Positions 6,591 to 21,393 of a stretch of DNA of 64,000 nt are shown here, piece after piece (position 1 is the first letter of the stretch; the number at the start of each line of letters is the position of its first letter). The notes under the pieces were generated by a model. It saw only the letters and a list, made by a program, of their open reading frames with translations, was not told where the DNA came from and ran no database searches. Source of the DNA: Anaerolineaceae bacterium (lineage in GTDB: Bacteria; Chloroflexota; Anaerolineae; Anaerolineales; Anaerolineaceae); assembly GCA_016841365.1 (NCBI GenBank), contig JAENZI010000001.1, positions 379,639-443,638 of the forward strand, read 5' to 3'. The position numbers and the translations under genes are program-made.

Positions 6591-6621
6591 AAAAAAAGAT
6601 GCCTGTGAAGGCATCTTTTTT
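6591..6621. terminator. Bidirectional intrinsic terminator
   Basis: aaaaaaagatgcc-tgtgaa-ggcatctttttt between convergent Nudix and rplY genes. Confidence 0.88.
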
Positions 6622-6643
6622 GTAATTAATTTGAGTTTTCCGA

Positions 6644-7336
6644 TCAGTCTTCTTCGGAGTCGAACTCGTCTTCTTTCTTGCCTTTTTCGATGACTTCAGG
6701 TTCGACATCTTCGTCGAGAAGCTCTGCGAATTCGGCTTCTTCTTCCTCTTCTTCTTCCTCTTCCTCAATCGTCACGTAGGTTACGCCGGCGATCAATTCA
6801 TCGGGGTCGGTGAGGACTTCGTATGTATCCGGCAGGTCAAGGTCTCGCACGTAGATCGCGCTTTCCATGTCCACCAATACTGTCGCATCCACCTCAATGC
6901 GCTCGGGCATGTCTTGCGGGAGACATTCGATTTCAAGTTCTGAAATACCTGTGACCACAACGGCAGCCATGTTGATCTCGGCGGGTGCCTGGCCGATCAG
7001 TTCGATCGGGACTGCGGTCTGGAATTTCTCGGTGAGGGAAACGGCCATGAAGTCCACATGGCGCAAGGTGCCATAGATCACGTCTTTTTGAGCTTCACGC
7101 AACACAACGGGATATTCTTCGCCTTCTACATCCAGCGAGACGAGGCTTGACCCCGTCAGTCGGTTGATCGTCTTTGAGGCTTCGTGGAGATCCATCTGGA
7201 TCATGATCGGTTCGATTTGTTCTTTGCCGATCCGCCCGTAAATGATCCCGGGCAAGAGACCTTCCCGTCGTAAACTGCTAACCTGTTTTCCTTTGATCGT
7301 TCTTTTTTGTACTTCTAATGCAATTTTTTCAGACAT
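6644..7336 (-). CDS. rplY: 50S ribosomal protein L25/Ctc (TL5-type) with acidic tail
   Basis: LRREGLLPGIIYG and HVDFMAV motifs, C-terminal beta domain, poly-Glu tail. Confidence 0.93.
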   Translation of the reverse strand: MSEKIALEVQKRTIKGKQVSSLRREGLLPGIIYGRIGKEQIEPIMIQMDLHEASKTINRLTGSSLVSLDVEGEEYPVVLREAQKDVIYGTLRHVDFMAVSLTEKFQTAVPIELIGQAPAEINMAAVVVTGISELEIECLPQDMPERIEVDATVLVDMESAIYVRDLDLPDTYEVLTDPDELIAGVTYVTIEEEEEEEEEEAEFAELLDEDVEPEVIEKGKKEDEFDSEED

Positions 7337-7489
7337 TATTCCATCCTTCGAGCGCCTCTCACCCTTGATGCGTGGGTTACCTTCGCTCTCTGATTAAGTT
7401 GGGTTGATTGCTGGACAATCCAGCGACATTGAATTCTATCCGGATCGCAGTAAAAGGTCAAGGTAAATGGCACTTTAAGACTATTCACC

Positions 7490-7517
7490 TTGACAAACCT
7501 CGATATCGTGATATAAA
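7490..7517 (+). promoter_or_regulatory. Sigma70 promoter for the gamma-lyase operon
   Basis: TTGACA (7490-7495) and extended -10 TGaTATAAA (7509-7517). Confidence 0.8.
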
Positions 7518-7521
7518 TGAA

Positions 7522-7545
7522 GCAAACGTTTGCGTAAACGATTGC
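7522..7545. promoter_or_regulatory. Tandem LacI/PurR-type operators
   Basis: Perfect palindrome GCAAACGTTTGC (7522-7533) followed directly by GTAAACGATTGC (7534-7545). The same motif pair occurs upstream of the LacI gene at 21013-21037. Confidence 0.85.
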
Positions 7546-7817
7546 CTGAATTAATTAGCCTTATTGAAGTTTCCGCAACAATCAACAGAAACGCGAATTT
7601 TTATTGGTAGCAGCAACCAATAACAGCAACAATCTGATCAGCATTGATAGATTGGATGATTGTTTTAACCATTGATGTCACTTAGGCTTGTTGATGGATA
7701 GATGGGATGGTTTTCTTACCGATCTAAAAGGAGGTTTCGACACGGTTCTTGAACGACTGATCGATTTTGTTTTCTACACAGGCAACTTTTTTAAATAACT
7801 CTGGAGGAGCTTAATTA

Positions 7818-9017
7818 ATGACACACGATTTATCAAATAAGGGGTTTGCAACACGGCAGATTCACGCAGGCAGTATTGACATCCCAGGCATCAAGCCGCT
7901 GGCGACACCAATATTTCAGACGAGCACCTTCGTCTTTGATAGCGCTGCGCAAGGTGCTGCGCGGTTTGCTGGTGAAGAAGATGGCTTTATCTACACCCGT
8001 ATGGGTAATCCTAATCATGAGCAGGTAGGGCAGAAGATTGCCTCCCTCGAAAATGCCGAAGCCGGTCTGGTGCTCAGTTCGGGGATGGGTGCGATCAATA
8101 CTTGTTTGTTGACGATTCTGCGCAGTGGCGATCACCTGCTGGCTGATGAGACGCTGTATGGCGCAACATTTTCCTTCCTGGCAAAAGGCATGTCCCACTA
8201 TGGGATCGATGTGACCTTTACCGATTTTTCGGATATTGAAAACGTCACAGATAATATCAAACCCAATACCAAAGCGGTTTATTTTGAAACGCCTGCGAAC
8301 CCAACCTTGAAGGTTTTGGATCTTGAGCTGGTTGCGGATACCGTTCATGCCGTCAATCAAGACATCAAAGTGATTGTTGACAATACCTTCTGCACGCCTT
8401 ACATTCAACGCCCGATAGAACTGGGCGTGGATGTTGTGATTCATTCAGGGACCAAGTATTTGAACGGTCACGGCGATGTGATCAGCGGGATGATTTGCGG
8501 CACGAAAGAATTTGTCGGCCAGTGTAAGGATTTTGGCCTCAAATTGGTGACAGGCGCTGTTGTCAGCCCCTTTGACGCTTTCTTGATCAGTCGGGGTATG
8601 AAAACCCTGGATATCCGCATGGAAAAGCATTGCAGCAACGCCATGAAAGTGGCTGAGTTCCTCGAAGGGCATGAGAAGGTCGCTAAAGTGTATTATCCCG
8701 GTTTGCCAAGCTTCTCAGGTTATGAAATTGCTAAGAAACAGATGCGGCTCCCCGGCGGGATCATCACCTTTGAGTTGGACGCCACCAAGGAACAATCCGA
8801 ATCATTTATTAACACCCTTGAGTTGTGTTCTTTAGCAGTCAGCCTGGGTGATACCGAGACGCTCATCCAGCATCCGGCATCAATGACCCACGCCTCTTAT
8901 TCAAAAGAGGAATTGAAGGAAGCCAAAATATCTGAGAGCATGATTCGCCTTTCAGTCGGGTTAGAAACGGCTGAAGATATCATTGAGGATTTACGAGTCG
9001 GTTTGGATCGATTGTAG
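7818..9017 (+). CDS. PLP-dependent Cys/Met metabolism lyase (methionine gamma-lyase-like)
   Basis: PIFQTSTF, YTRMGNP, SSGMGAI, HSGTKYLNGHGD (PLP Lys) and IRLSVGLE motifs. Has LYGAT in place of the LYGCT of canonical MGL. Confidence 0.9.
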   Translation: MTHDLSNKGFATRQIHAGSIDIPGIKPLATPIFQTSTFVFDSAAQGAARFAGEEDGFIYTRMGNPNHEQVGQKIASLENAEAGLVLSSGMGAINTCLLTILRSGDHLLADETLYGATFSFLAKGMSHYGIDVTFTDFSDIENVTDNIKPNTKAVYFETPANPTLKVLDLELVADTVHAVNQDIKVIVDNTFCTPYIQRPIELGVDVVIHSGTKYLNGHGDVISGMICGTKEFVGQCKDFGLKLVTGAVVSPFDAFLISRGMKTLDIRMEKHCSNAMKVAEFLEGHEKVAKVYYPGLPSFSGYEIAKKQMRLPGGIITFELDATKEQSESFINTLELCSLAVSLGDTETLIQHPASMTHASYSKEELKEAKISESMIRLSVGLETAEDIIEDLRVGLDRL

Positions 9018-9055
9018 ATTAACCTTTCAATGATCAAACTTTATTAATACGATAT

Positions 9056-9092
9056 CAGTGCCAATTCTTATGAAAGGATTGGCACTGTTTTT
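9056..9092 (+). terminator. Terminator-like hairpin between the lyase and the ProC-like gene
   Basis: cagtgccaat...attggcactg stem followed by TTTTT. Confidence 0.6.
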
Positions 9093-9114
9093 ACCCTACA
9101 AGAAAAGGTAAATA

Positions 9115-10221
9115 ATGTCAGAGCGGACACCAAGAATTGCAATTATTGGTTTGGGTTTTTTGATGCGTTACATGAAACCCTGTTTTGAGGCATTAACCAG
9201 AAATGCTTACGCTACCAATGTTGTCGCGACCACTGCTACTGAAGCATCTATCTCAGCCAAGCAGGCGGAAATGGGGATTCGCATCTACCATCATCATGAA
9301 TTGGGGGTCCTCAAGGCTTTCAAACCTGACATTATCATGTTTGCGCCGCCGCCTTCTGCAGTAGCGAATCTGACGCGCGATGTGCTTGTGCCTTACTATC
9401 GCGAAATAAAAGAAGGAAATAAGCCTCTGCCAGATCTGTATGCTTTTGCACCAGATCCGCGTGTGGAATATTATCAGACCCAATTGGGCAATGACGGCTT
9501 TTATGTCAATATATTGCCTAATATGACCTTTGATCCATCTGGTGACGCGCCGGCATGCTATTCGGTGGTCACTTATCCGGATTACCAGGCACACAATGTG
9601 GAAAAAATTGCGCGTGTTGAAGCATTTCTGTCACCGTTGGGGTCTGTCCTAAACATGCCATCAGAGTGGATCACGCCCTTCATCGGTGGGTATGTGGTCT
9701 GTCATTTGGTCCTGAATTTTGCTTTTGCCTGTTATGACGCGTTGAACACATCGGGATACCTGGTATCAATGGAACAGATTGCAGATGTGTTTCAGGATTC
9801 TTTATCGAATGATAATATTTCTTTCGATAGCAATAATGAGGGCAGTGCTGAAACCGTTTGCCGGTTCGTCCTGAAAAGTTTTCAAAACGGATTAATTAGT
9901 TATTATGCTCAATCCGGCATATCAGAAGGATTTGCACGGAACGCGATCACGGTCCAATTGAACGCGTTCATTGAACGTTTACGGTCTGAAACGCGGGAGA
10001 ATTTAATCAGGGACAGTCAGAATCATGCTACAAAGGGTGGTCTGCTTGAAAACGCCGAAAGATATTTCCATGACAATATTCACGCAAACCTTCTTGACCG
10101 TTTATCTTCCCCGGAAGGCGATCTTGAGACGTTATCCGAAAAAATTTCGCAGTTTGCCTATGATGCTGCAGCCTTTATTTCTGCATTTAGCGATGGATAT
10201 TCTGGGATCACCGGGAATTAA
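9115..10221 (+). CDS. Divergent pyrroline-5-carboxylate reductase (ProC)-like NAD(P)-dependent oxidoreductase
   Basis: Rossmann IAIIGLGFL; DIIMFAPPP (ProC VLAVKP); VNILPNM (ProC VRxMPN); LSPLGSV; ATKGG (ProC TSPGG). Longer than typical ProC. Confidence 0.65.
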   Translation: MSERTPRIAIIGLGFLMRYMKPCFEALTRNAYATNVVATTATEASISAKQAEMGIRIYHHHELGVLKAFKPDIIMFAPPPSAVANLTRDVLVPYYREIKEGNKPLPDLYAFAPDPRVEYYQTQLGNDGFYVNILPNMTFDPSGDAPACYSVVTYPDYQAHNVEKIARVEAFLSPLGSVLNMPSEWITPFIGGYVVCHLVLNFAFACYDALNTSGYLVSMEQIADVFQDSLSNDNISFDSNNEGSAETVCRFVLKSFQNGLISYYAQSGISEGFARNAITVQLNAFIERLRSETRENLIRDSQNHATKGGLLENAERYFHDNIHANLLDRLSSPEGDLETLSEKISQFAYDAAAFISAFSDGYSGITGN

Positions 10222-10255
10222 TGCAGGTTTTCTAACTCAATAATTATTAAACAAA

Positions 10256-10301
10256 GCACCCCTGGAAAATTTCGGATAAGAGGAATGAAATCCAGGGGTG
10301 C
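10256..10301. terminator. Inverted repeat at the junction of the two convergent operons
   Basis: gcacccctgga (10256-10266) ... tccaggggtgc (10291-10301). Confidence 0.55.
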
Positions 10302-10360
10302 AGAAGTTTGTAAATTGGTAATTTTCGAAATTAATAAACGCTTGTCGTTACTGAATTACC

Positions 10361-10999
10361 TTATTCATTTTCTAAAACAAATTCAGCGAAAGAAGTCAGC
10401 ATCAGTTTGGCGACGGCTGCGCCGGGGTCAACTAATTTTCGGGAAGCTTCGCCGCGTGCAGCAGCACGGCCGTGTTTGGCGATCATGGTTGTTGTTTTTT
10501 CGAGGTCTTTATCGGCGGCGGCGATGATCATTGGTGCACTTTCTTTCAGGCTTCTGCCGGTTTCAGCACCTTCTTTTAGGATTTCTAAAGACCCGATCAT
10601 CCCATCCAGGAATGTTTTCTCGCCAAGCTCAGCGTGGCCAAGGTTCTTCACCCCATCGAAATAAGCTTCAAAGAATTCAGCAATACCTTGCTCATCAAGC
10701 TTGTCTGTGCCTCGTAAAGCCTTCCCTGCGGACATAAACCCTTGTGACATTAATGTTCCCATAGACGAGGGAACGGCGCGAGACATCGCCTTGCCGGAAA
10801 AGTAGGATAGCTTGCCGATGTCCGTTTCATCAAGATCCTCGACAGCGTGAACGGCAGCGGCAAAACCTTCACTCATTGTAAGGCCTAAATCAGCATCTCC
10901 AACGATGCTGTCAAGACCAATTAGGTAATCTTTATGCTGCAGCATGACTTCTGCCCAAGCGTTGAGCAACTGTTTGAATTCGAGATGTGTGATGATCAT
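10361..10999 (-). CDS. dhaL: Dihydroxyacetone kinase family subunit L (copy 1)
   Basis: LDSIVGDADLG, SSMGTL, EKTFLDG and GRA motifs. Confidence 0.9.
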   Translation of the reverse strand: MIITHLEFKQLLNAWAEVMLQHKDYLIGLDSIVGDADLGLTMSEGFAAAVHAVEDLDETDIGKLSYFSGKAMSRAVPSSMGTLMSQGFMSAGKALRGTDKLDEQGIAEFFEAYFDGVKNLGHAELGEKTFLDGMIGSLEILKEGAETGRSLKESAPMIIAAADKDLEKTTTMIAKHGRAAARGEASRKLVDPGAAVAKLMLTSFAEFVLENE

Positions 11000-11022
11000 G
11001 TCTAAAACCCTCCTGTTTATTT

Positions 11023-12030
11023 CTACATTTGTGTGAAGAATGGTGTGTCTGCCGGGTCGGCAATCATTTCTCTTAATTCGTCATCAAGTTTGAGTAGCGA
11101 AATGGAGGCACCAGCCATCTCCATTGATGAGGCGAATTCGCCAACATATGCTTTGAAGACATCAATCTTTTTCTCTTCAAGAATGTGAGCAACGCAGCGA
11201 TACATCACATATAGTTCTTCGAGTGGGGTGGCACCTAATCCATTGATCAGAACAGCGACTTCATCACCAGATTGGAATGGCAGATCGTTGAGGATCTGTT
11301 CCATCATTTCATTGACAATTTCATCTGCGGGTTGCAGCTTTCCGGTTCGCATGCCGGGTTCGCCGTGGATGCCCATCCCAATTTCCATTTCATCTTCTTT
11401 GATCTGGAAACTTGGCCGGCCGACTTTGGGGACAATACACGGGGTGAGGGCAACACCCAGGGTGCGCACATTGGCATTTGCTTTTTCAGCCACGCGCTTC
11501 ACCTCATCCAGGTCCATCATCCTTTTTGCTGCTGCACCGGCACATTTGTAAACGAAGAACATCCCGGCAACACCTCTACGGGTGCTTTTTTCGCCTGGCT
11601 GGGGTGCTGGGGAGGCAACGTCATCGGCCAAGATCACGGTCTCGACCCGGATGTCTTCCTCAAAATCAGCCATTTCCGCAGCCATGTCGAAATTGAAGAT
11701 GTCGCCGTTGTAATTGCCATAGATATAAAGGACGCCAGCACCTGAATCGATTGCTTTGGTGACCTCAAACATTTGCTCTGCACTGGGTGATTGGAACACA
11801 TCACCAACAGAGCAGCCATCCAGCAAGCCGTCGCCTACATAGCCGAGGAACAATGGTAAATGGCCTGATCCTCCGCCAGTTGCCAGGCCGACTTTATTTT
11901 CGATTTTATTTTTGGTTACATAACAGTGGTAATCGTCATTGACAAATTCCACCATGTCCTTATGGGCAAGGTAGATACCTTCAAGCATTTCATTCACCAT
12001 CGCTTCGGGTTTATTTATGATTTTTTTCAT
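11023..12030 (-). CDS. dhaK: Dihydroxyacetone kinase family subunit K (copy 1)
   Basis: GGGSGHLP, NYNGD, DDVAS, RRGVAG and GMGIHGEPG (catalytic His) motifs. Confidence 0.92.
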   Translation of the reverse strand: MKKIINKPEAMVNEMLEGIYLAHKDMVEFVNDDYHCYVTKNKIENKVGLATGGGSGHLPLFLGYVGDGLLDGCSVGDVFQSPSAEQMFEVTKAIDSGAGVLYIYGNYNGDIFNFDMAAEMADFEEDIRVETVILADDVASPAPQPGEKSTRRGVAGMFFVYKCAGAAAKRMMDLDEVKRVAEKANANVRTLGVALTPCIVPKVGRPSFQIKEDEMEIGMGIHGEPGMRTGKLQPADEIVNEMMEQILNDLPFQSGDEVAVLINGLGATPLEELYVMYRCVAHILEEKKIDVFKAYVGEFASSMEMAGASISLLKLDDELREMIADPADTPFFTQM

Positions 12031-12193
12031 ATCTCCTCTTTTCTCAAAGATCCTGAGTTGATTGGGTTTTAAAAGCCATCTATTTTTTAACTATTATTAC
12101 CAGTAGCTAGATCGGGTTAATGAATATTTTATTTCTTACTGCCGTTAAATAAATTCTTTTGTTGTTGTTTATTAATAAATAAGTGCTTTAGCA

Positions 12194-12227
12194 AGAAAGG
12201 GCCCTAACCTAAGCCAAGGCCCTTTCT
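12194..12227 (-). terminator. Hairpin downstream of the solute-binding protein gene
   Basis: agaaagggcc...ggccctttct stem. The U-tract is weak, so it may be an mRNA-stabilising element. Confidence 0.45.
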
Positions 12228-12266
12228 CCATTCTTACATCATAAAATTTTTTACTGCTGAACGGCT

Positions 12267-13478
12267 TTAATTTTCCAGGGCGTTCAGGTTGACAAATTGA
12301 CCGTCAATGACCTGAATTGGCTGAAGTTGTCGAACTGCATCGCCAAGCTCGTTCATGGAATAGGTGCCTGCCAGGCATTCATAATCTTCCATGCCGGCGA
12401 GGGTGTCGCGGAGTGTTTGGCTATCGGTTGTACCAGCCTGTTCAATGGCTGTGGCAAGCTGCATCACGACATCGTAGGTCTGCATGACGAAGGCATCACC
12501 CTTCTTGCCGGTGCGCTCTTCATAGGCTGCCATAACTTCCTGGAAGCGTTCGGTTGCAATGTCGGGTGAGAAGGCATTCATCAGGAAAGCGCCATTGGCC
12601 AGTTCACCAGCTACATCGATCAGTTCCTGTTTGAGGGTTGAGCTGGAGAGGATCATTGGTACATCGAAGTCAAGGCCATCTGCCTGGATCAGGATGTTGG
12701 CTGAATCAGCATAGTATCCGATGGGGAAGAAGGCTTCAGGATTGGCTTCTTTGGCTTTTGAAATCATAGGTGTGAAGTCTGTGGTCTGGTTAGGAATGTA
12801 ATTTTCTGAGACCAAAACTTCGCCGCCCAATTCCTCAAATTTCTCAGTGAAGATTTTTGAGATGTTGTTGCCCCAGTCATCGTTCACATTCAGCAGAGCG
12901 ACGGTGCGGATGCCCATTTCATTGTAAACATATTCGGCATAGCCGGTGGTTTCAATTGCCTGGGTGGGGGTGTTGCGGAACAAGAAATCACCCATGGCTG
13001 AATAGTCAGCGTGTGATGCTGTGGGTGAATAGTTGACCATCTTGGCTTCCTGATAGAGGGGGGCGGCAGCCATGGTGCAGGTTGAGGAGAAGCCGCCGAT
13101 TGCCGCTGTGAATTTTCCGTCGCCAATGATCTTGTTCGCGATGATGACGGTTTCGCTGGCGTCGTTCTTGTCGTCGAAGAATTCAACGATCAGCTCACGA
13201 CCGCCCAATAAACCGCCCATTTCGCCATTGATTTTTTCGAGGGCGAGTTCAACAGCAACTTTTTCAGTATCGCCATATTGCTTTGCGTCACCGGTCAGGG
13301 GACCGTACCAGGCAAAGTAAATGGGTTCCATCGATGCTTCTTCTGTTTCTTCTTCCACAGGTTCCTGTTCTTCGACTACTTCAGGTTCTGTGGGTTCTTC
13401 GGCTTGTTGACAACCAGCCAGAAGTGCAAATATGGAAACGGCGATTAACAATACGGGTATTAATTTGCGAATCTTCAT
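12267..13478 (-). CDS. LIV-type (branched-chain amino acid family) ABC transporter substrate-binding lipoprotein
   Basis: Lipobox LLAGC, acidic linker, GPLTGDAKQYG, DDKND, GGFSST and SPTAS motifs of the LivJ/K fold. Confidence 0.88.
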   Translation of the reverse strand: MKIRKLIPVLLIAVSIFALLAGCQQAEEPTEPEVVEEQEPVEEETEEASMEPIYFAWYGPLTGDAKQYGDTEKVAVELALEKINGEMGGLLGGRELIVEFFDDKNDASETVIIANKIIGDGKFTAAIGGFSSTCTMAAAPLYQEAKMVNYSPTASHADYSAMGDFLFRNTPTQAIETTGYAEYVYNEMGIRTVALLNVNDDWGNNISKIFTEKFEELGGEVLVSENYIPNQTTDFTPMISKAKEANPEAFFPIGYYADSANILIQADGLDFDVPMILSSSTLKQELIDVAGELANGAFLMNAFSPDIATERFQEVMAAYEERTGKKGDAFVMQTYDVVMQLATAIEQAGTTDSQTLRDTLAGMEDYECLAGTYSMNELGDAVRQLQPIQVIDGQFVNLNALEN

Positions 13479-13636
13479 TTTCTCTAAACTCCTTAAAGTT
13501 TGTTATGGTTATTGACTCGGTAAAAATTGTCGGGCATTTGAATTATCCTTTCGATACTCTACTCCTTTCAGCAAATTTGGTTTTTATCTCCTGTATTTCT
13601 TTTAGTCAACCTCAGAATCGTGATGAGGAGACCTGG

Positions 13637-14263
13637 TTAGACAAGTGATTTAGCGATGATGGCGCACAGCATTGCGCCTGCGTCCGGGTATTCTGCAGCG
13701 CGTTTGCCCAGCCATTTTGCACGACCGATTCTGGCTTGCATGCCACGGGTTGCCTCTGCTGCTTCTTCAGCTGCAACAGCACCAGCCTTGAAGCTTTGGT
13801 AGAGGTCATTTGATTCTGCATAGGTCTCTTCAACGGCGTTGGCCATTGGGACCAGCGCATCCAGAATCGTTTTATCACCCAATTCTGCCTTCCCACGAGA
13901 AACAATCCCTTCAGTGAATGTTTTAGGCAGTGTGATAAGCTCTTGCTCTTCGATTGATGTTTTGGATTTGAGTAACTTTGCGATTGATAGGATTCCGCTG
14001 GAGATCAGCGTTCCCATTGTGGATGGGGCGGCACGGTTGCACGCCATTGAAGCTTTGAGCATCATCGCGCCCAGGTCGTCGCCATCATATTCCTGGCAGC
14101 TTGTATTAATTGCAGCAAATGCGGCTTCCATGCTTATGCCAAGATCGCCATCACCCGATTTACTATCCAAATCGCTGAGTGTGTCTTTGTTTTGGATGAC
14201 CGTGTTTGAAATCTCTGTAATTAAGGTTTTTACATCATCAATCGAATTCATCATAACTCTCAT
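13637..14263 (-). CDS. dhaL: Dihydroxyacetone kinase family subunit L (copy 2)
   Basis: LDSKSGDGDLG, STMGTL, DKTILDAL, GRA and PDAGA motifs. Confidence 0.9.
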   Translation of the reverse strand: MRVMMNSIDDVKTLITEISNTVIQNKDTLSDLDSKSGDGDLGISMEAAFAAINTSCQEYDGDDLGAMMLKASMACNRAAPSTMGTLISSGILSIAKLLKSKTSIEEQELITLPKTFTEGIVSRGKAELGDKTILDALVPMANAVEETYAESNDLYQSFKAGAVAAEEAAEATRGMQARIGRAKWLGKRAAEYPDAGAMLCAIIAKSLV

Positions 14264-14282
14264 TATTAACTTGATTGCTTGG

Positions 14283-15281
14283 TTAGAACTTCACAAAAGG
14301 CGTTTCTGCGGGGGTATCCAGCAGTGCCTTTAATTCCTCATCCAAAACCAATAAGCTGATCGAAGCACCCTGCATTTCCATCGATGTGGCGAATTCACCC
14401 ACATAGGTCTTTGAGATTTTGATATCGCGCTTATCCAGCTCTTGTTTAGCGTCATTGAAGAGGATGTAAAGTTCTTCACGGGAGGTCGCTCCCAGGCCAT
14501 TGACGAGGATTGCTATTTCAGCCCCTGGTTTGATGTCCAGGTCGCTGATCAGCCGTTCAACAATCATATTAGCGATTTCTGCGGAGGTCTTCAGGGTGGA
14601 GCGTTCTACGCCAGGTTCGCCATGGATGCCCATGCCCAATTCCATATCGTAATCGCTGATTTCGAAGATGGGTTTCTTTGCTCCGGGCAACTGGCATGAA
14701 GATAGTGCGATGCCCATGGTGACCGTGTTTTCACCAACTTTCTTAGTGACGTCAACGACCTCATTGAGGGAGGCACCTGTCCGTGCCTTTGCGCCTGCAA
14801 CCTTGTAGGCGAAGAAAAGACCTGCAACGCCTCGCCGGGTTTCCCATTCGTCTCTGGGTGCTGAGGCTACGTCATCCGATCCTTTTACGATCGCGGAAGG
14901 GATATCATCCATGGCTAAAATTTCACCAGCCATCTCGAAGTTCATTGTGTCACCGGTGTAGTTGCCGAACAGGAAGAGCACACCTTTACCGCCATGGGTT
15001 GCCTGGGCAGCGTTGACGATCGTTTCCGAACTTGGTGATGTAAACACATTGCCTGCTGCAACGCCATCACAAAATCCTTCGCCGACAAAGCCCAAAAAGG
15101 TGGGGAGGTGGCCGTAACCTCCGCCTGTGATGATGGCAACTTTATCTTTAACCGGGGCGGCAGCACGCACCACAGCGCGAATATCGTCACCGGCAAATTT
15201 GAGCATTTCTGGATGTGCAGCAACAATGCCTTTCAGGCTGTCATCGACGAATTGTGCAGGATTATTCATAATCTTTTTCAT
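14283..15281 (-). CDS. dhaK: Dihydroxyacetone kinase family subunit K (copy 2)
   Basis: GGGYGHLP, NYTGD, DDVAS, RRGVAG and GMGIHGEPG motifs. Confidence 0.92.
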   Translation of the reverse strand: MKKIMNNPAQFVDDSLKGIVAAHPEMLKFAGDDIRAVVRAAAPVKDKVAIITGGGYGHLPTFLGFVGEGFCDGVAAGNVFTSPSSETIVNAAQATHGGKGVLFLFGNYTGDTMNFEMAGEILAMDDIPSAIVKGSDDVASAPRDEWETRRGVAGLFFAYKVAGAKARTGASLNEVVDVTKKVGENTVTMGIALSSCQLPGAKKPIFEISDYDMELGMGIHGEPGVERSTLKTSAEIANMIVERLISDLDIKPGAEIAILVNGLGATSREELYILFNDAKQELDKRDIKISKTYVGEFATSMEMQGASISLLVLDEELKALLDTPAETPFVKF

Positions 15282-15294
15282 AGGTTCACTCCTT

Positions 15295-15807
15295 CTATTC
15301 TGGTTCTTGCACTTTAACTTTATCGAACCTGAGTTGGCAGACCGAATGTCCTTGGGCTATTGTCTTGCCCAGCGTGAAATTGATGGCAGGGAAGCAATCG
15401 CCAATAGCCCGGTCGCCTTCCATGGTGATGTCACAAAGTTCTGCGATCTCATCTTCAGGGATGCCCATCTTCAGCCATTGTGCCACATAAGGGCAATAGT
15501 GGAAGTCAATGTAGAGTTTGTCCTCTGTGGAGGCAACCGTTTCCATCTCGTAAATATCCCAGTTGTGATCTTTGCCGAAATATTTGGCAAGCTCCTCAAT
15601 GTCTGTGGGATCTTCCAGCATATTGTAGAAATCTTTTCCCATAGGGATGCCATACCGGTAAATTGCTCGACGGGCAAAACCTTCATCGAGGCCAAGTTCT
15701 TCCGCTTCTTCAATCATTAAGGCAATCGTAGCAGCCCGGCGTTCGCTGATGTTCCTCAGTCCGTTAACGCATTCGTTTTCGATGGTGGGTTTGTTGGTGA
15801 TAGTCAT
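15295..15807 (-). CDS. L-2-amino-thiazoline-4-carboxylic acid (ATC) hydrolase family protein (paralog 2)
   Basis: FHYCP...LCDITMEGDR...FTLGKTIAQGHSVCQLRF three-Cys pattern. The family name does not establish the activity. Confidence 0.7.
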   Translation of the reverse strand: MTITNKPTIENECVNGLRNISERRAATIALMIEEAEELGLDEGFARRAIYRYGIPMGKDFYNMLEDPTDIEELAKYFGKDHNWDIYEMETVASTEDKLYIDFHYCPYVAQWLKMGIPEDEIAELCDITMEGDRAIGDCFPAINFTLGKTIAQGHSVCQLRFDKVKVQEPE

Positions 15808-15818
15808 GTTTTTTATTC

Positions 15819-16319
15819 CTATTTCTTATTAAAGCGAATTTGACAGACTGGGTGACCCTGAGCGATGGTTTCACCCAATGTAAATTTCACTGTGGGGAAT
15901 TGGCTGGCAATTCCTCGATCACCATCCATGGCGATATCGCAGAGTTGTTCGATGTCTTCATCTGACACGCCTAATTTTTGCCAGGCTTTGACTAGGGGGC
16001 AGTAGTGAAAATCTAAGTAATATTTCTCTTCATCTTCTGCAAGAACTTCCATCTCAAAGACTTTTCGGCCAGTGCCAACAGCGAAGACCTGTTCGAACTC
16101 TTCAAGGCTGGTCTCATCTTGCATGAGTGCTTTGAAGCGTTCTCCGTGGATGCAACCTGTCTGTTTGATTGCTTCGCGTGCAAAATCATCCCAATCCAAA
16201 CCACGTTTTCTTGCTTCTTCCATCAGGAAATACATCCACGTGGCGCGGTGTTCAATTGCGTTTCTGACTTCGACAACGATTTCCTCGTCAATGGTTGCTT
16301 CATTTGTGATTTTCGTCAT
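15819..16319 (-). CDS. ATC hydrolase family protein (paralog 1)
   Basis: FHYCP...LCDIAMDGDR...FTLGETIAQGHPVCQIRF. Start moved to the ATG at 16319 (SD gaaagga upstream). Confidence 0.7.
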   Translation of the reverse strand: MTKITNEATIDEEIVVEVRNAIEHRATWMYFLMEEARKRGLDWDDFAREAIKQTGCIHGERFKALMQDETSLEEFEQVFAVGTGRKVFEMEVLAEDEEKYYLDFHYCPLVKAWQKLGVSDEDIEQLCDIAMDGDRGIASQFPTVKFTLGETIAQGHPVCQIRFNKK

Positions 16320-16359
16320 ATCTTCTCTTCCTTTCGAATGGGTTATTTTATTGAGTTGA

Positions 16360-17073
16360 TTAATCAAGGTTGCCTAAATACGCGGCCACCACTTTTGGAT
16401 CTTTTGCAAGGTCTGACCCCTTGCCTGACAAGCGGATGATACCGGTTTCCAAAACATATCCTCTATCCGAGATATTGAGCGCCATACGGGCATTTTGCTC
16501 TACGAGCAGGATCGTTGTGCCAATCTGATTGATCCGTTTGATCAAATCAAATATTTCCCTGATCAGCAATGGCGCTAATCCAAGTGAGGGCTCATCCAAC
16601 ATCAATAACTTGGATTTTGACATCAGTGCCCTGGCGACAGCCAACATTTGCTGTTCACCACCCGAGAGGGTGCCTGCGATCTGACTCAATCGTTCTTTGA
16701 GCACCGGGAACAATTTGAACGATTCTTCCATGTTCTCTTTCATGACTTCTTTTGAGACGGTGTACGCGCCCATTTGCAGATTTTCAAGGACGGTCATCCG
16801 TGGGAAGATCAACCGGCCTTCAGGTGCGAGTGTGATCCCGTGTTTAACGATCGTGGAGGAGTCTTCATGAGATATGTCCTCACCCTGGTAGAGGATTTCG
16901 CCCATTTTTGGCCGCAAGAGACCCATGATCGTGTTCATGGTTGTGCTTTTGCCAGCGCCATTTGCACCAATCAGGGTGACAATCTCGCCTTCGTTCACTT
17001 CGAAATTGATCCCACGCAAGGCGTTGATCGAGCCATAGGAAACGTGCAAGTTTTTGACTTCAAGCAATGCCAT
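16360..17073 (-). CDS. livF: LIV-type ABC transporter ATPase
   Basis: GANGAGKST, LSGGEQQMLA and LDEPSLGLAP motifs. Confidence 0.92.
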   Translation of the reverse strand: MALLEVKNLHVSYGSINALRGINFEVNEGEIVTLIGANGAGKSTTMNTIMGLLRPKMGEILYQGEDISHEDSSTIVKHGITLAPEGRLIFPRMTVLENLQMGAYTVSKEVMKENMEESFKLFPVLKERLSQIAGTLSGGEQQMLAVARALMSKSKLLMLDEPSLGLAPLLIREIFDLIKRINQIGTTILLVEQNARMALNISDRGYVLETGIIRLSGKGSDLAKDPKVVAAYLGNLD

Positions 17074-17077
17074 GATG

Positions 17078-17845
17078 TTAGTGCTCCTTTCCCAGATATG
17101 CTTCGATCACATCAGGGTTCGATTGGATCTCAGAGGGTTTTCCCTGCGCAATCAATTTACCGTGATCCAGCACATAAATCCGGTCGCAGATATTCATAAT
17201 GACGCGCATATCATGTTCGATGATCAGGATGGTGTAACCCAAATCTCGCAATTCACGGATGAACGCGATCAACTGAGAGGTTTCCATCTCGTTCATGCCA
17301 GCGCCGGGCTCATCTAACAACAATATTTCAGGCTCCGCAGCGAGTGCACGTGCGATCTCCAATTTTCTCTGTGAACCGTAGGGGAGTGATGTTGCATAGT
17401 TATACCGAAAATCTGCCAATCCGGTTAATTCGAGCACAGAGAGGGCTTTTTCGTGAGCTTTTTTCTCGGTTTCTTTGTGGTTTTTTAGGCGGAATAATGA
17501 GTCAACAATATTGGCTTTGGTTCTTGAGTGAACTCCAACCATCACGTTTTCAATCACGGTCATCCTGTCAAATAAGCGGATGTTCTGGAATGTGCGCGTA
17601 ATCCCTAATTCGGTGACCTCATAGGGCTTTTTGCCGGTAATATCTTTGCCCCGGTAAAATACCTGGCCTTCTGTTGGGTCATACATGCCGGTAATATCAT
17701 TAAAGAAGGTCGTTTTTCCGGCACCGTTAGGACCAATGATGCCGACAATTTCACCCTTATTCAGTTCCATACTCACTTGATCAACTGCAACAAGGCCGCC
17801 GAAGTGCTGGCTGACGTTATTAGCCCAAAGAATTTTTTCAGCCAT
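17078..17845 (-). CDS. livG: LIV-type ABC transporter ATPase
   Basis: GPNGAGKTT, RTFQNIRLF and LLDEPGAG motifs. Confidence 0.92.
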   Translation of the reverse strand: MAEKILWANNVSQHFGGLVAVDQVSMELNKGEIVGIIGPNGAGKTTFFNDITGMYDPTEGQVFYRGKDITGKKPYEVTELGITRTFQNIRLFDRMTVIENVMVGVHSRTKANIVDSLFRLKNHKETEKKAHEKALSVLELTGLADFRYNYATSLPYGSQRKLEIARALAAEPEILLLDEPGAGMNEMETSQLIAFIRELRDLGYTILIIEHDMRVIMNICDRIYVLDHGKLIAQGKPSEIQSNPDVIEAYLGKEH

Positions 17846-18945
17846 CAGGACTCACTCCTTTCCTGTGATTTGCGGAACATTGCTTGCTGCTTGATGTGCT
17901 TGAGATTGAAACTGCCCAACAGTCCATTAGGTTGGAATACCATCATAATAACAAGTACGAACCCGTAGATGATCAAACGGTAATCTATCAAAAACCGGAG
18001 TAATTCTGGCAAGGCTAGCAGTGTTAGGGCACCAAAAATGCTCCCAGCGATGCTGGCCATCCCGCCAAAAATGGTGACGGAGAGGATCAGGATTGACTGG
18101 GCAAACGAAAAGGCATTTGGATCGATGAAGCTCATATAATGCGCATAAAATGCACCAGCCAAACCAGCAAATGCGGCCGAGATGCTGAATACCATCAGCT
18201 TATACCCAAAAACATTAATGCCCATTGCTTCTGCTGCCACTTCATCATCCCGGATAGCGCTGATCGCCCTGCCGACCCGTGAGTTCATGATCGCGGCCAC
18301 AGCCAGAACAACAAGTACCAGGATTACCAGGATCACGTAATATTTCTGGGCTGGTGTTTTCATTATCCAACCAAATAAGCTCACCTTGGGGATGCCGGAA
18401 ATCCCTTGTGGACCTCGTGTTAAGGACATCCAGTTGAGCTCTACCATTCTCGCAATCTCACCAAACCCGAGCGTGACAATTGCTAAGAAGCGTCCTTTGA
18501 TCCGGAGGGAGGGCAGCCCTAAAAGCAAACCAAATAAACCAGCCATGGCTGCCCCTGCGAGGAAGGTGATTGGGAAATTTGCTCCTAAGCGGGTTGAAAG
18601 AATGGCTGCTGTGTAAGCCCCAATCCCTAAAAATGCAGCGTGGCTTAAGGAGGTGATGCCCATAAAGCCTGTGATCAGATTAAGGGATACGGACAGAGTT
18701 GCGTACAGCATCACATTTACACCAATTGAGAGAAAGTATTGCTGATTGAACAATATCGGAAAAAGAATGGCAATTGCAAGAAAGGCCAAAGAAATTGCTG
18801 TTTGGTGTTTAGCCCAAAACTCCAGAAGCGAGGTGAAAAACCTTTTGACCGGTTTTTCTTTGCTCTTGATAGGGGCTTTGATGACTGCTTCGTCTAAATT
18901 TTGCTGTGAAGCTTTATCGATTGGATTTTGATTGTTCTCGACCAT
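17845..18945 (-). CDS. livM: LIV-type ABC transporter permease
   Basis: SLSHAAFLGIGAY, GRFLAIVTLGFGE and GINVFGYK motifs; multiple TM segments. Confidence 0.9.
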   Translation of the reverse strand: MVENNQNPIDKASQQNLDEAVIKAPIKSKEKPVKRFFTSLLEFWAKHQTAISLAFLAIAILFPILFNQQYFLSIGVNVMLYATLSVSLNLITGFMGITSLSHAAFLGIGAYTAAILSTRLGANFPITFLAGAAMAGLFGLLLGLPSLRIKGRFLAIVTLGFGEIARMVELNWMSLTRGPQGISGIPKVSLFGWIMKTPAQKYYVILVILVLVVLAVAAIMNSRVGRAISAIRDDEVAAEAMGINVFGYKLMVFSISAAFAGLAGAFYAHYMSFIDPNAFSFAQSILILSVTIFGGMASIAGSIFGALTLLALPELLRFLIDYRLIIYGFVLVIMMVFQPNGLLGSFNLKHIKQQAMFRKSQERSES

Positions 18946-18950
18946 GGGTT

Positions 18951-19844
18951 TTATACCTTTGTCTCGATTTTGACGCCTAATAGGCCAGAAGGTTTTATTA
19001 ACAGAACAACAAACATGATGATAAATGCAATTGCATCTCGGAAACCCGAACCAACATAAGCAGCAAACATAGTTTCGACAATGCCGATGATAAAACCGCC
19101 GAACATCGCGCCGGGTAAACTGCCCATTCCGCCGAGTACTGCGGACGATATGGATTTGAGGCCAACGGAAGCGCCCATCAGGGTATCAATTTTTTGGTAA
19201 TAAGTCCCCATCATTGCGCCAGAGATAGCTGCAACAGCTGACCCGATGAGAAATGTGATGGTAATGACGGTATTGACATTGATGCCCATCAGCTTGGCGG
19301 CGGTTGCATTTTGTGAAATTGCTCGCATGGCGTTCCCGATTTTGGTGCGATATACGAGGTAAGAGAGACCAAGCATCAACAGAATGGCTACAACAAATAT
19401 GATGATCTGAAAAATTTGGATAACAGTGTCACCGACGTAAACCTTCCCTAACTGAAAAACATCCGGGAAAGGTTTTGATTCGGTCCCAAAGATCAATAAG
19501 ATCGAGTTGTTGATGATCGTTTGGACGCCTACGGTTGTCAGAAGGGCTGTAATGGGGGCACCATTTCTCTTGCGGATGGGTTCCAGTGAAGCCTTATCCA
19601 TTAAAGCGCCTAATAGGCCGGTAATGACGATGCTGATGCCCAGCCCGATAAAGAACCCCAGCGGGGTGACTCGCCCTAACAGCCAGGTCATGGAGAAGAC
19701 AGTCAGGTAGGCACCGAGCATGTAGAAAGAACTATGGGCAAAGTTGGTCAGTTCAAGCACACCATAAACCAGGTTGAATCCGATGGTGACGAGTGCGTAT
19801 GTGCTGCCGATGGTTAATCCGTTGACAAGTTGTTGAAAAAACAT
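18951..19844 (-). CDS. livH: LIV-type ABC transporter permease
   Basis: QQLVNGLTIGSTYAL, NFAH and LGGMGSLPGA motifs. Confidence 0.9.
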   Translation of the reverse strand: MFFQQLVNGLTIGSTYALVTIGFNLVYGVLELTNFAHSSFYMLGAYLTVFSMTWLLGRVTPLGFFIGLGISIVITGLLGALMDKASLEPIRKRNGAPITALLTTVGVQTIINNSILLIFGTESKPFPDVFQLGKVYVGDTVIQIFQIIIFVVAILLMLGLSYLVYRTKIGNAMRAISQNATAAKLMGINVNTVITITFLIGSAVAAISGAMMGTYYQKIDTLMGASVGLKSISSAVLGGMGSLPGAMFGGFIIGIVETMFAAYVGSGFRDAIAFIIMFVVLLIKPSGLLGVKIETKV

Positions 19845-19967
19845 AATTTTTCACCTGCTTAGGAAATAAAATTGGATATCAAGGAGCTGCATGTGAGTAA
19901 TTCCATCAAATTTAAACATGTGATATTTTACCTATAAATGTCGAAAGTAAGGATTCCTTTAGGTTCA

Positions 19968-20987
19968 TCAGTCTAATAAAATTGACCTCGTAGAGTCCCT
20001 GACAATGATCTTTGCAGGGAGGATGATTTCTTCATTTTCCCACGACGAAACATCCAGTTGAACTTTTTCTAAGAGCCGTTCAACAGCGGTTTCAGCAATC
20101 TTGCCGACAGGCTGGGCGATAGTTGTGAGGCTGGGCACTATGGCTGAGGCTAACTCAATATTGTCAAAGCCGACGAATGAGAAATCTTCGGGGATGCGGT
20201 AGCCGTTTCGGCGGGCGGTTGCCATCGCACCGATCGCCATCATATCGTTCAGGGCAAACACGGCTGTGGGGAGGGGTTCTGTTAAGAGTAGTTTTTCCAT
20301 GACAAAGGAGCCGCTCTTCATCGTGAAATCCCCTTGAACGATGTATTCGGGTTTTGGTTCAATCCCGATTTCTCGCAGTGCTTTTCGAAAGCCGCATTCT
20401 CGCATATGGCTTGGGGCTAATTCGGTTGGCCCGGTGATCAAAGCAATCCGCGTATGCCCCAGGTCAATCAGGTGTTTTGCACCATCGTAACCCGCTTGCT
20501 CATTATCCAGCAAGATCATGTCGGCCAGGCTGAGGGGGATATTGCGGTCTACCACAACAACGGGTGTACCGGTGTTTGCCAATCGCTGCAGATCTTCTTT
20601 TGATTCACCGGCAGAAATGAAGATCACACCATCAACCTGTTTGGCGATCAGGGTGTCGATGTAACTGCACTGTTTTTCGAGGTCATTGTCACTATTACAC
20701 AGGATGACACTGTAGCCATTTTTGAAACCCAGATCTTCGATCCGGCGGGCCATATCGGCAAAGAAGGGGTTGGACCCATCGGGCAGCATCAGTCCAATCG
20801 TTTTGGTTTCGCCGCTGCGCAAACTTCTCGCCAGTGTATTCGGATGGTATCCAAGATTAGACATTGCTTTTTCAACGGCATCGCGGGTGGGCTCGGCAAC
20901 AAACCGTGTGTTATTGATCACATGAGAAACCGTTGTTGTCGAAACACCTGCTTGATTGGCAACATCCTTGATTGTGACTTGTCTCAT
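19968..20987 (-). CDS. LacI-family transcriptional regulator (PurR/RbsR-like HTH)
   Basis: TIKDVANQAGVSTTTVSHVINNTRFV, ARSLR hinge, C-terminal sugar-binding domain (GFDN). Confidence 0.93.
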   Translation of the reverse strand: MRQVTIKDVANQAGVSTTTVSHVINNTRFVAEPTRDAVEKAMSNLGYHPNTLARSLRSGETKTIGLMLPDGSNPFFADMARRIEDLGFKNGYSVILCNSDNDLEKQCSYIDTLIAKQVDGVIFISAGESKEDLQRLANTGTPVVVVDRNIPLSLADMILLDNEQAGYDGAKHLIDLGHTRIALITGPTELAPSHMRECGFRKALREIGIEPKPEYIVQGDFTMKSGSFVMEKLLLTEPLPTAVFALNDMMAIGAMATARRNGYRIPEDFSFVGFDNIELASAIVPSLTTIAQPVGKIAETAVERLLEKVQLDVSSWENEEIILPAKIIVRDSTRSILLD

Positions 20988-21012
20988 TGAGTGAATACCT
21001 TGAATTTCCTTG

Positions 21013-21069
21013 GGAAAACGATTGCGTAAACGATTGCTTCAAATATATCAGGTTAACGGCGTTTGTCAA
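21013..21069 (-). promoter_or_regulatory. Sigma70 promoter plus tandem LacI operators for the lacI-liv-dha operon
   Basis: Minus strand reads TTGACAAAC-gccgttaacc-TGATATATTT-GAAGCAATCGTTTAC-GCAATCGTTTTC, with the same spacing as the promoter at 7490. Confidence 0.85.
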
Positions 21070-21393
21070 GGGTTTAACAGCAAGTTAATTTGGCGTTGCT
21101 TTTGATTTGATGAAAATTGGATTTGGAACGATGAATTCAATAAAAATTTTTGCTATCAACGATATTTGCCTGATTTTTAAAGAAGATGACTTTACAGTGT
21201 CAACCTTAAAAATATTGCAGTTTAGCTGATTATTGAACAAATAATTAGACTTTGTTGACATAGATGACCAGTTGAATTTAATCGGTGCCAGCACTTCGCT
21301 TCATTGACCATGCAGAATCTCAGCAACGCGTTTTCGAGTAAAATCAGAGTAGTAACCCAATGGATTAGTTTTCTTTAAGAGGGAAGTGTGATC

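Follow-up and report, generated by a model that had tools for sequence, protein, structure and literature searches.

In Pseudomonas, L-2-amino-thiazoline-4-carboxylate (L-ATC), a compound of synthetic or cyanide-derived origin, is converted to L-cysteine by the hydrolase AtcB, which opens it to N-carbamoyl-L-cysteine, and by AtcC, the N-carbamoyl-L-cysteine amidohydrolase. The operons for fructoselysine (frlABCD) and those for mannopine and santhopine in Agrobacterium (moc/soc) combine a regulator and ABC import with splitting of the conjugate, phosphorylation of the sugar and delivery of the amino acid to metabolism, while ectoine is degraded by a cyclic-amidine hydrolase (DoeA) and an N-acetyl-diaminobutyrate deacetylase (DoeB/DoeB2). 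Aldehydes and sugars combine spontaneously with cysteine and homocysteine, and we know of no way by which anaerobes recover these amino acids from such carbonyl adducts. Here we describe a gene cluster at positions 7490-21069 of a 64-kb stretch of DNA from an Anaerolineaceae bacterium (the whole stretch analysed is called the window), which we classify as a repressor-controlled, conjugate-catabolic operon pair built around an undescribed enzyme pair, namely a 368-amino acid (aa) oxidoreductase and proteins of the ATC_hydrolase family (PF14196). Its sequence suggests that one LacI/PurR-type regulon serves to import and dismantle a conjugate in which an amino acid is joined to a small, sugar-like carbonyl compound, a prediction to which we assign a probability of about 0.5; the amino acid part of this predicted conjugate is most probably cysteine or homocysteine. 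The reading is carried by the identities of the genes, an operator common to both operons, the conservation of a core set of proteins and gene fusions, all of which are directly observed.

The described systems each resemble the locus in part. The two ATC_hydrolase proteins of the window belong to the family of AtcB (PF14196, 96 and 74 bits) and are about its size, and sister clusters in other genomes add an M20 enzyme and a cysteine-degrading enzyme, which recalls the Pseudomonas sequence of ring opening, deacylation and cysteine. However, the window has no M20 amidohydrolase, and two ATC domains are combined here with an NAD(P) oxidoreductase (often as a fusion), an ABC importer and DhaK/DhaL. 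The predicted logic of the window, that is, regulated import of a conjugate, its splitting and phosphorylation of the sugar part, is that of the Amadori and opine operons, but the cluster lacks an FrlB-type deglycase, FrlD, an FAD amadoriase and a MocC-type oxidoreductase, and its predicted splitting enzymes come from other families. The sister clusters also bear a likeness to ectoine degradation, since opening of a cyclic C=N bond would be followed by an M20-type deacylase, and one of their M20 enzymes (in locus L007) matches the DoeB2 model as well (217 bits, below cut-off); yet the ring-opening family and the importers differ, and the ectoine route has neither an oxidoreductase nor a kinase. 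The searched literature contained no description of the gene combination or of the oxidoreductase family, in keeping with an earlier note on this DNA, which did not recognise the combination as a described pathway. It also contained nothing on PF14196 with DhaK, thiazolidine catabolic clusters, thioproline or N-formylcysteine, cysteine desulfidase with thiazolidine, or DhaK with branched-chain transport.

The cluster consists of two convergent operons with 14 open reading frames (ORFs), all of which were assigned from the ORF list, Pfam and NCBIfam; the gene calls of the earlier note were borne out by the same sources, "ProC-like" being the sole exception. Judged by their scores against family models, the proteins belong with LacI, Dak1/Dak2 and PF14196 and do not belong with ProC, the named Liv equivalogs or phosphotransferase system (PTS)-type DhaK, while the lyase is borderline. 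The plus-strand operon holds the methionine gamma-lyase gene and then the gene of the 368-aa protein; the minus-strand operon runs in the order LacI, livH/M/G/F, ATCa, ATCb, DhaK2, DhaL2, binding protein, DhaK1, DhaL1. The genes are as follows.

7818-9017, plus strand: methionine gamma-lyase (MGL), a pyridoxal phosphate enzyme of the Cys/Met metabolism family (PF01053, E=2e-141)
9115-10221, plus strand: NAD(P)-type oxidoreductase (368 aa) from a rare family without a name; its N-domain is of the Rossmann type (IIGLGFLM, FAPPP), its C-domain helical, with invariant ATKGGxLE
10361-10999, minus strand: DhaL1, nucleotide-binding subunit of a dihydroxyacetone-type kinase (PF02734, E=1.7e-36)
11023-12030, minus strand: DhaK1, substrate-binding subunit (PF02733, E=4.9e-122; motifs GGGSGH, NYNGD, GIHGEPG)
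12267-13478, minus strand: LIV (HAAT)-type periplasmic or extracellular substrate-binding protein (PF13458, E=1.6e-52)
13637-14263, minus strand: DhaL2 (PF02734, E=1e-38)
14283-15281, minus strand: DhaK2 (PF02733, E=1.7e-114; motifs GGGYGH, NYTGD, GIHGEPG)
15295-15807, minus strand: ATC_hydrolase-family protein b (ATCb), 170 aa (PF14196, 74.2 bits against a cut-off of 28.1)
15819-16367, minus strand: ATC_hydrolase-family protein a (ATCa) (PF14196, 96.2 bits against a cut-off of 28.1)
16360-17073, minus strand: LivF-like ABC importer gene (NCBIfam)
17078-17845, minus strand: LivG-like ABC importer gene (NCBIfam)
17845-18945, minus strand: LivM-like ABC importer gene (NCBIfam)
18951-19844, minus strand: LivH-like ABC importer gene (NCBIfam)
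19968-20987, minus strand: LacI-family repressor, first gene of the long operon, with a LacI HTH domain at its N-terminus (PF00356, E=2e-20) and an effector domain resembling periplasmic binding proteins (PF00532, PF13377 and PF13407; Peripla_BP_1/3/4)

The survey of co-occurrence started from the oxidoreductase and covered only loci with that protein, and the locus counts given here cover the 56 loci holding a relative of it, which were not de-replicated. At 27 of these loci the oxidoreductase carries a fused ATC_hydrolase domain (PF14196), and at 11 more a separate PF14196 gene lies no more than 10 kb from it. Fusions of ~610 aa each were present in 10 of the first 30 relatives. The fused ATC domain is C-terminal in bacteria and N-terminal in Promethearchaeota (Asgard archaea), and in Lokiarchaeum the oxidoreductase and the ATC protein are encoded by adjacent separate genes. 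The fusions in the two orientations are independent, which is strong evidence that the oxidoreductase and the ATC proteins act together. The earlier note had treated the two operons as one functional unit, and this view is upheld both by their common operator, described below, and by the fusions, which in many lineages join the oxidoreductase of the plus-strand operon to the ATC_hydrolase domain of the minus-strand operon.

The whole arrangement is present in the relative L001 (86% protein identity). In the relative L002 (47%) the oxidoreductase gene is convergent with DhaL-DhaK-SBP-DhaL-DhaK-ATC-ATC-livFGMH (SBP, substrate-binding protein), and MGL and LacI, which are lineage-specific additions, are absent. 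In the gut clostridial loci L006, L009, L010 and L037 (~33%) it is convergent with SBP, SDH_alpha, DhaL-DhaK-ATC-ATC and livFGMH. A second and commoner type of cluster (e.g. L007, L017, L019, L024-L026 and L031) has the order SBP-livHMGF-ATC-(oxidoreductase-ATC fusion)-M20-SDH_alpha, in which the M20 protein falls within TIGR01891, a subfamily of N-acyl-L-amino-acid amidohydrolases, with 278 bits where the cut-off is 154. The SDH_alpha protein, found in 15 loci, is a homologue of a solved L-cysteine desulfidase (9he0, E=8e-29), and no serine dehydratase was present among its matches. Ten loci carry DhaKL and 16 carry M20, but no locus has both; the desulfidase homologue occurs with either. Other parts vary too: a ribokinase-like PfkB lies beside DhaKL in L028, L029 and L032, L041 carries an SKI-family kinase and a GntR regulator, L034 a homocysteine S-methyltransferase domain, and the regulator of the clostridial clusters is a histidine kinase with an AraC-type response regulator. 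The core, comprising the LIV-type ABC importer, two ATC domains and the oxidoreductase, recurs as a set in Anaerolineales (L001, L002), in Clostridia of gut and rumen and in Desulfobacterota (L034, L041). What is invariant is the importer, the two ATC domains and the oxidoreductase; the amino acid enzyme, the sugar enzyme and the regulator are exchangeable. The earlier note had proposed looking for co-occurrence of the genes in other genomes and would have counted its absence against the pathway; the core was found in distant phyla, so that this objection falls. Its suggestion of a sulfur amino acid as product gains independent support from the exchange of MGL for an L-cysteine desulfidase homologue and from the homocysteine S-methyltransferase domain, and its sugar-like second product is supported by the interchangeable kinases (DhaKL, ribokinase-like PfkB and SKI-family kinase). 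Beside the cluster in L002 (positions 936-6997 of that locus) stand three tandem B12-binding radical-SAM genes (~660 aa) and the gene of an unannotated 629-aa protein.

No Pfam or NCBIfam model matched the 368-aa protein at default thresholds, and a profile search against the PDB sequences gave no match; a look-up of its exact sequence also returned nothing. Its relatives numbered only 30 among 5.8 billion clusters, and an exhaustive profile search recovered ~100 clusters (50% identity) covering the oxidoreductase domain among 1.84 billion. An AlphaFold 2 (AF2) model (pLDDT 88.8) consists of a Rossmann domain and then a helical domain, and a Foldseek search with it returned prephenate dehydrogenase first, with PYCR1/ProC (E about 5e-7), KARI and G3PDH also among the matches (TM 0.37-0.55). 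Of the earlier label "ProC-like oxidoreductase" only a weak resemblance at the level of the predicted fold is left: ProC and PYCR, which oxidise thioproline, are likewise NAD(P)-dependent two-domain enzymes (Rossmann plus helical), and the structure of PYCR1 with L-thiazolidine-4-carboxylate (6xp2) is among the best fold matches. Family identity with ProC was rejected, as PF03807 scored 13.4 bits against a cut-off of 21.6 (with weak matches in 11 of 30 relatives), no P5CR_dimer match was found, and the NCBIfam proC model did not match. The protein also differs from ProC in length (368 against ~270 aa) and motifs (ATKGGxLE) and shows no significant sequence match to it, and prephenate dehydrogenase scores equally well at TM values of only 0.37-0.55. 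On its predicted fold it is an NAD(P)-type oxidoreductase of the 6-phosphogluconate-dehydrogenase-like class, with resemblance to ProC but without membership. Its contexts in archaea and actinobacteria are uninformative, with an MFS transporter or unrelated genes as neighbours. In four Desulfobacterales loci (L033, L035, L036 and L038) a relative without ATC or ABC neighbours is followed by the gene of a 440-aa protein that, by eye, resembles an aminotransferase of the glutamate-1-semialdehyde-aminomutase type, which hints at a different use of the oxidoreductase family there.

ATCa and ATCb share 47% identity, and separate orthologues of the two are found in L001, L002 and L006. The homologues of ATCa cover only residues 17-182 of the 182-aa ORF, and the true start is likely to be the ATG at 16319, which would give 166 aa. 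Three cysteines (Cys123, Cys143 and Cys175 in the 182-aa numbering) are invariant in seven cluster paralogues and 40 homologues. A sequence search of solved structures with ATCa gave no meaningful match, and its AF2 model (pLDDT 91.9) matched in fold Bet3/TRAPP, the V4R domains of the phenol sensors PoxR/MopR/DmpR, and H-NOX. In MopR, a three-cysteine cluster holds a structural zinc. Proteins of the Bet3 family pair with a paralogue as heterodimers; that two ATC domains are always present fits this habit, and from the modelled fold ATCa and ATCb probably form a heterodimer. The fold agrees with the published kinship of PF14196, V4R and H-NOB and with the three-cysteine cluster common to them (PMC5847659).

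These matches raise another role for the ATC proteins, as V4R/Bet3-type ligand-binding subunits that would present or sense the substrate for the oxidoreductase and would not be hydrolases; a plain dehydrogenase route would then serve a polyol- or hydroxy-substituted amino acid, and the kinases would act on the oxidised product. All the fold matches of ATCa are ligand binders, its three invariant cysteines match the cluster of the PoxR/MopR V4R sensor domains (PMC5847659), and the fold matches of the oxidoreductase include hydroxyl dehydrogenases. Close homologues of ATCa, 63-70% identical, moreover stand alone in other Anaerolineales (L057, 10001-10510; L058, 10001-10507), among unrelated neighbours that are not conserved, and the ATC_hydrolase family therefore also has a role outside the cluster. 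Nonetheless, at least one PF14196 member is a purified hydrolase that opens a thiazoline ring by C-S cleavage, as cited in PMC5847659 (its reference 46). The sister clusters, furthermore, pair the ATC domain with a TIGR01891-class amidohydrolase, implying a ring-opening product that needs deacylation. The AtcB/AtcC pathway of Pseudomonas parallels this pairing. On balance, a ligand-binding role without hydrolysis appears quite unlikely.

The two operons begin at matching promoter/operator blocks.

7488-7546, plus strand: promoter/operator of the lyase operon, with -35 TTGACA (7490-7495), TG (7509-7510), TATAAA (7512-7517) and the boxes GCAAACGTTTGC (7522-7533) and GTAAACGATTGC (7534-7545)
21013-21071, minus strand: promoter/operator of the LacI-liv-atc-dha operon, with TTGACA, a 16-nt spacer, a TG-extended TATATT and then GCAATCGTTTAC and GCAATCGTTTTC

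These arms form the highest-ranking inverted repeat of the region, with 78% identity over 59 nt. Both promoters have the -35 element TTGACAAAC, a 16-nt spacer, a TGn-extended -10 (TATAAA at the lyase promoter versus TATATT at the LacI promoter) and then tandem palindromic 12-bp, CG-centred boxes of the PurR type; the first box of the lyase promoter, AAGCAAACGTTTGCGT, is a near-perfect PurR-type box. The earlier description of the blocks as near-identical is right in that every functional element matches, but with 78% identity over 59 nt it is slightly generous. Within the 64-kb window the 26-nt operator pattern TGAAGCAAWCGTTTRCGYAAWCGWTT matches at the two operon starts only (0.00 expected), and the 12-mer operator core has four matches against 0.07 expected. 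No further copies with up to 2-3 mismatches were found in the window outside the two promoters, including upstream of glpK, and a loose 12-mer search was at chance level (16 found, 14.5 expected). In L001 the promoter/operator stretch before the lyase gene is conserved at every position (100%), whereas the remainder of the leader has diverged, and the stretch thus constitutes a phylogenetic footprint.

At both operons the tandem boxes directly follow the -10 element and overlap the expected transcription start, an arrangement that fits repression. Since lacI also heads its own operon, the repressor is probably autoregulated. Its best NCBIfam match is PurR (300 bits against a cut-off of 501), followed by RbsR and CytR, and because all the models of named regulators score below cut-off the effector is not inferable from them; the protein is PurR/RbsR/CytR-like, and a sugar effector is assumed. 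Shared repression might also arise without a shared substrate, if a dihydroxyacetone/glyceraldehyde operon with an amino acid importer and a separate Met/Cys lyase operon had clustered fortuitously and were globally co-repressed (e.g. by carbon status). LacI regulators of the PurR or CcpA type can govern many unrelated operons, MGL and LacI are absent from L002, and a terminator-like hairpin parts MGL from the oxidoreductase gene. Such clustering nevertheless sits poorly with the restriction of the operator to these two promoters in the window, glpK upstream included, with the oxidoreductase-ATC fusions in 27 loci, and with the order ABC-ATC-ATC-DhaK-DhaL-(SBP) plus convergent oxidoreductase, which is kept from Chloroflexota to Bacillota at 30-47% protein identity. 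We consider it very improbable.

The lyase scores just below both NCBIfam cut-offs (NF004876, 614.6 against 666; TIGR01328, 536.1 against 549.7), and its 20 best solved relatives are all MGL (e.g. 5dx5, 527 bits); by these comparisons it is a close relative of authentic methionine gamma-lyases. Two inverted repeats lie downstream of its gene.

9056-9092, plus strand: terminator- or attenuator-like hairpin in the gap between the lyase and oxidoreductase genes, with a 14-bp stem and 4-nt loop (9056-9087), then TTTTT
10256-10301, no strand assigned: inverted repeat between the convergent operons, with an 11-bp GC-rich stem GCACCCCTGGA/TCCAGGGGTGC and a 24-nt loop, read from the sequence

The stem of the first hairpin is kept in L001, where its loop varies. 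Because a hairpin with a T-run stands between the two genes, the 368-aa gene is probably expressed by read-through and at a lower level, which suggests attenuation or differential expression of the lyase and oxidoreductase genes. The second repeat, which was not called by the terminator scan as its loop is too long, may be a bidirectional transcription stop. The leader of the lyase gene (7549-7817, plus strand) is ~270-290 nt long, and parts of it are kept in L001, e.g. AAAAGGAGGTTTCGACACG near 7727. An RNA element in this leader was rejected, since an Rfam scan of the whole window returned tRNA only and no riboswitch, and the folding of the leader gave z=0.01.

All four kinase domains are full length, with 407 and 382 bits for Dak1 and 126 and 133 bits for Dak2. 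DhaK1 and DhaK2 are 48% identical, DhaL1 and DhaL2 32%. In DhaK the histidine of GIHGEPG binds the substrate as a hemiaminal, and the histidine of GGGSGH and the aspartate of NYxGD are catalytic; alignments to two DhaK structures, 3ct4 and 4lrx, with the proteins of E. coli and L. lactis, showed that the motifs GGGxGH, NYxGD and GIHGEPG are kept in both proteins. Full-length Dak1/Dak2 domains with the hemiaminal histidine and the acid/base residues are thus shared with known dihydroxyacetone kinases (DhaK-DhaL-DhaM of E. coli and L. lactis, the ATP-dependent DAK of Citrobacter and the mycobacterial erythrulose kinases), whereas the locus differs from these in having two split K/L pairs inside an operon with an amino acid-type importer, and in the absence from the cluster of DhaM, DhaR, DhaS and DhaQ. 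No DhaM-like ORF is present among the 14 assigned ORFs, neither DhaK nor DhaL reaches the equivalog cut-offs of dhaK1 and dhaL, and a higher score is obtained with NF011049, the model of the ATP-dependent family; the DhaKs are probably ATP-dependent kinases for a hydroxy-aldehyde or hydroxy-ketone. The single DhaK of the clostridial clusters matches DhaK1 (394 bits) better than DhaK2 (328 bits), and DhaK1/DhaL1 are kept as a pair in L001 and L002. By sequence comparison, DhaK1L1 is the pair common to Clostridia and DhaK2L2 an extra pair of Anaerolineales.

The importer genes, which encode its ATPases and permeases, match LivF/G/M/H best in NCBIfam and UrtE/D/C/B next, all below the equivalog cut-offs, and the binding protein, at 117.7 against an equivalog cut-off of 477, is far below the LivJ/K and urea models. 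By these scores the importer is placed only in the wider HAAT family and not among the named Liv equivalogs. In an alignment with E. coli LivJ (~22% identity), the equivalents of Tyr18, Ser79, Thr102 (here Ser) and Tyr202, which hold the carboxylate, are kept. In LivJ the free alpha-ammonium group is bound by Glu226; the window protein has Ser at this position, and all 27 cluster-linked binding proteins that align there have Ser, Gly, Thr or Ala. A non-acidic residue at this position weakly suggests a ligand whose nitrogen is substituted, in a ring or weakly basic, rather than plain Leu/Ile/Val.

In the proposed pathway the LIV-type ABC system would import the conjugate, and the oxidoreductase, complexed with ATCa/ATCb (paralogues with a Bet3/V4R-type fold and a three-cysteine site), would oxidise and then hydrolytically open its C-N/C-S linkage. 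The two ATP-dependent DhaK/DhaL kinases would trap the C3/C4 hydroxy-aldehyde or hydroxy-ketone as a glycolytic phosphate ester, while MGL would split the freed thiol amino acid, giving a 2-oxo acid with release of ammonia and H2S. The repressor would act on the tandem operators at both starts, its own included, and is assumed to be released by the substrate or by a phosphorylated product. Inferred in this scheme are the association of the proteins in a complex, the sequence of reactions, the kind of substrate and the effector.

The earlier note had envisaged the substrate as a cysteine-sugar thiazolidine (or an Amadori, opine-like or S-glycosyl amino acid), whose C=N bond would be processed and whose ring would be opened. 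E. coli ProC oxidises thioproline and 1,3-thiazinane-4-carboxylate (PMC12899673). In the M20-type sister clusters each step of such a route has a precedent, namely oxidation by ProC, thiazoline opening by AtcB, liberation of cysteine by an aminoacylase or carbamoylase and its degradation by a desulfidase, and the thiazolidine to thiazoline to ring-opening route fits these clusters best. In the window, C2 oxidation and thiazoline hydrolysis would give an N-acyl-cysteine (the amidase is absent here) and a sugar acid, which is no DhaK substrate. Because C2 oxidation gives a sugar acid, and because DhaKL and M20 never co-occur, this route leaves the kinases of the window unexplained. Of the earlier proposal, the thiol amino acid, the sugar-like product and the co-occurrence of the core are supported, but the route itself would yield an acid, and we regard the thiazolidine version as possible but doubtful. 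Either the window must use chemistry other than the simple thiazoline route, or its adduct must be of the N-alkyl kind and not an N,S-acetal. Three ways out are possible: an N-alkyl adduct whose imine is hydrolysed to an amine and a carbonyl compound, oxidation on the alpha-carbon side, or opening of the ring by the ATC pair without net oxidation.

A rival reading is catabolism of an opine-like, reduced-Schiff-base compound (an N-polyhydroxyalkyl amino acid) or of an Amadori-type compound, with no thiazolidine ring. The oxidoreductase would make an imine from a secondary-amine C-N bond, the ATC proteins would hydrolyse it, releasing the free amino acid, and DhaK/DhaL would phosphorylate dihydroxyacetone, glyceraldehyde or erythrulose. 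This chemistry would keep the product at the carbonyl oxidation level that DhaK needs, explain the DhaKL clusters without an amidase (DhaKL and M20 being mutually exclusive) and suit the missing Glu226 of the binding protein, which would meet an N-substituted amine; the fold class of the oxidoreductase also includes opine-type and other C-N dehydrogenases. It leaves unexplained, however, the recurrent MGL, cysteine-desulfidase homologue and homocysteine methyltransferase domain, and a natural N-(dihydroxypropyl) amino acid is not known to us and was not found in the searched literature. The sole characterised PF14196 enzyme acts on a thiazoline C-S bond (PMC5847659). Catabolism of this opine-like kind is in our judgement unlikely. 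Chemical reasoning alone led us to discard other substrates, namely the S-glycerylcysteine of lipoproteins, S-ribosylhomocysteine, and head groups of the serinol or betaine-lipid type, because none of them yields a DhaK substrate together with a need for a C-N/C-S hydrolase. 2-Aminothiazoline-4-carboxylate could suit the M20-type sister clusters but leaves the kinases of the window unexplained.

Several points weigh against a regulon for the uptake and breakdown of an amino acid-sugar conjugate. The ATC_hydrolase fold, as modelled, is mostly familiar from ligand-binding, non-catalytic proteins, and ATCa-like proteins stand alone elsewhere in Anaerolineales, as described above. The match of the oxidoreductase model to the ProC fold is weak (TM 0.37-0.55), and since hydroxyl dehydrogenases (prephenate dehydrogenase, KARI and G3PDH) share its fold, C-N oxidation is only a presumed activity; relatives of the enzyme also occur in Actinomycetota and in several Desulfobacterales without ATC or ABC neighbours. 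The absence of MGL and LacI from L002 counts here as well, as without MGL the sulfur amino acid step falls outside the invariant core. Finally, the acid produced by the simple thiazoline route, discussed above, is a difficulty for the kinases.

If the conjugate reading is true, the locus represents a catabolic route that the searched literature does not contain, and a new family of oxidoreductases; of their partner domain, PF14196, only one member has been characterised. The same core is present in Clostridia of the human and animal gut and in Asgard archaea. A broader and tentative proposal is that one unrecognised machine, in which the oxidoreductase is bound or fused to the three-cysteine hydrolase pair, is common to anaerobes of the Chloroflexota, the Clostridia of gut and rumen, the Desulfobacterota and the Asgard archaea, and would dismantle the thiazolidine or thiazinane adducts that arise spontaneously from cysteine or homocysteine and sugars or aldehydes. 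The tail enzymes (DhaK/DhaL, ribokinase, SKI-type kinase or N-acyl-amino-acid amidohydrolase) would perhaps set which adduct is used. Such a machine would offer a general salvage or nutrient route, in anoxic habitats, for sulfur amino acids locked by carbonyl chemistry. The window is a clean experimental start, with one repressor, two operators, a dedicated binding protein, and fusions that name the proteins to co-purify.

The cluster is flanked by the gene of ribosomal protein L25 (6644-7336, minus strand) at one side and a GH57 glycoside hydrolase gene at the other, and this placement indicates that it is chromosomal; the window also contains mutS, alaS, dnaX, fmt and glpK. The L25 protein shares 81-88% identity with homologues labelled "Anaerolineales bacterium", "Brevefilum sp." and "Chloroflexota bacterium". 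A 1190-aa ORF without a Pfam match at E<=1e-5 (9-3581, plus strand) adjoins a subtilase with a PA domain (3738-5690, minus strand). At 27617-30751 (minus strand), a 1044-aa ORF joins a full serine hydroxymethyltransferase domain (residues ~17-433) to a full glycine-cleavage T-protein/aminomethyltransferase domain (~639-1007), an unusual fusion of two folate-dependent C1 enzymes. In the region 56000-64000 the G+C content falls from ~0.47-0.48 to 0.42-0.43 and the GC skew flips sign, right after a tRNA (56287-56358, plus strand). The region carries an aceric-acid-hydrolase-like protein (58568-60448) and sugar ABC permease genes, and may be an acquired polysaccharide-utilisation island.

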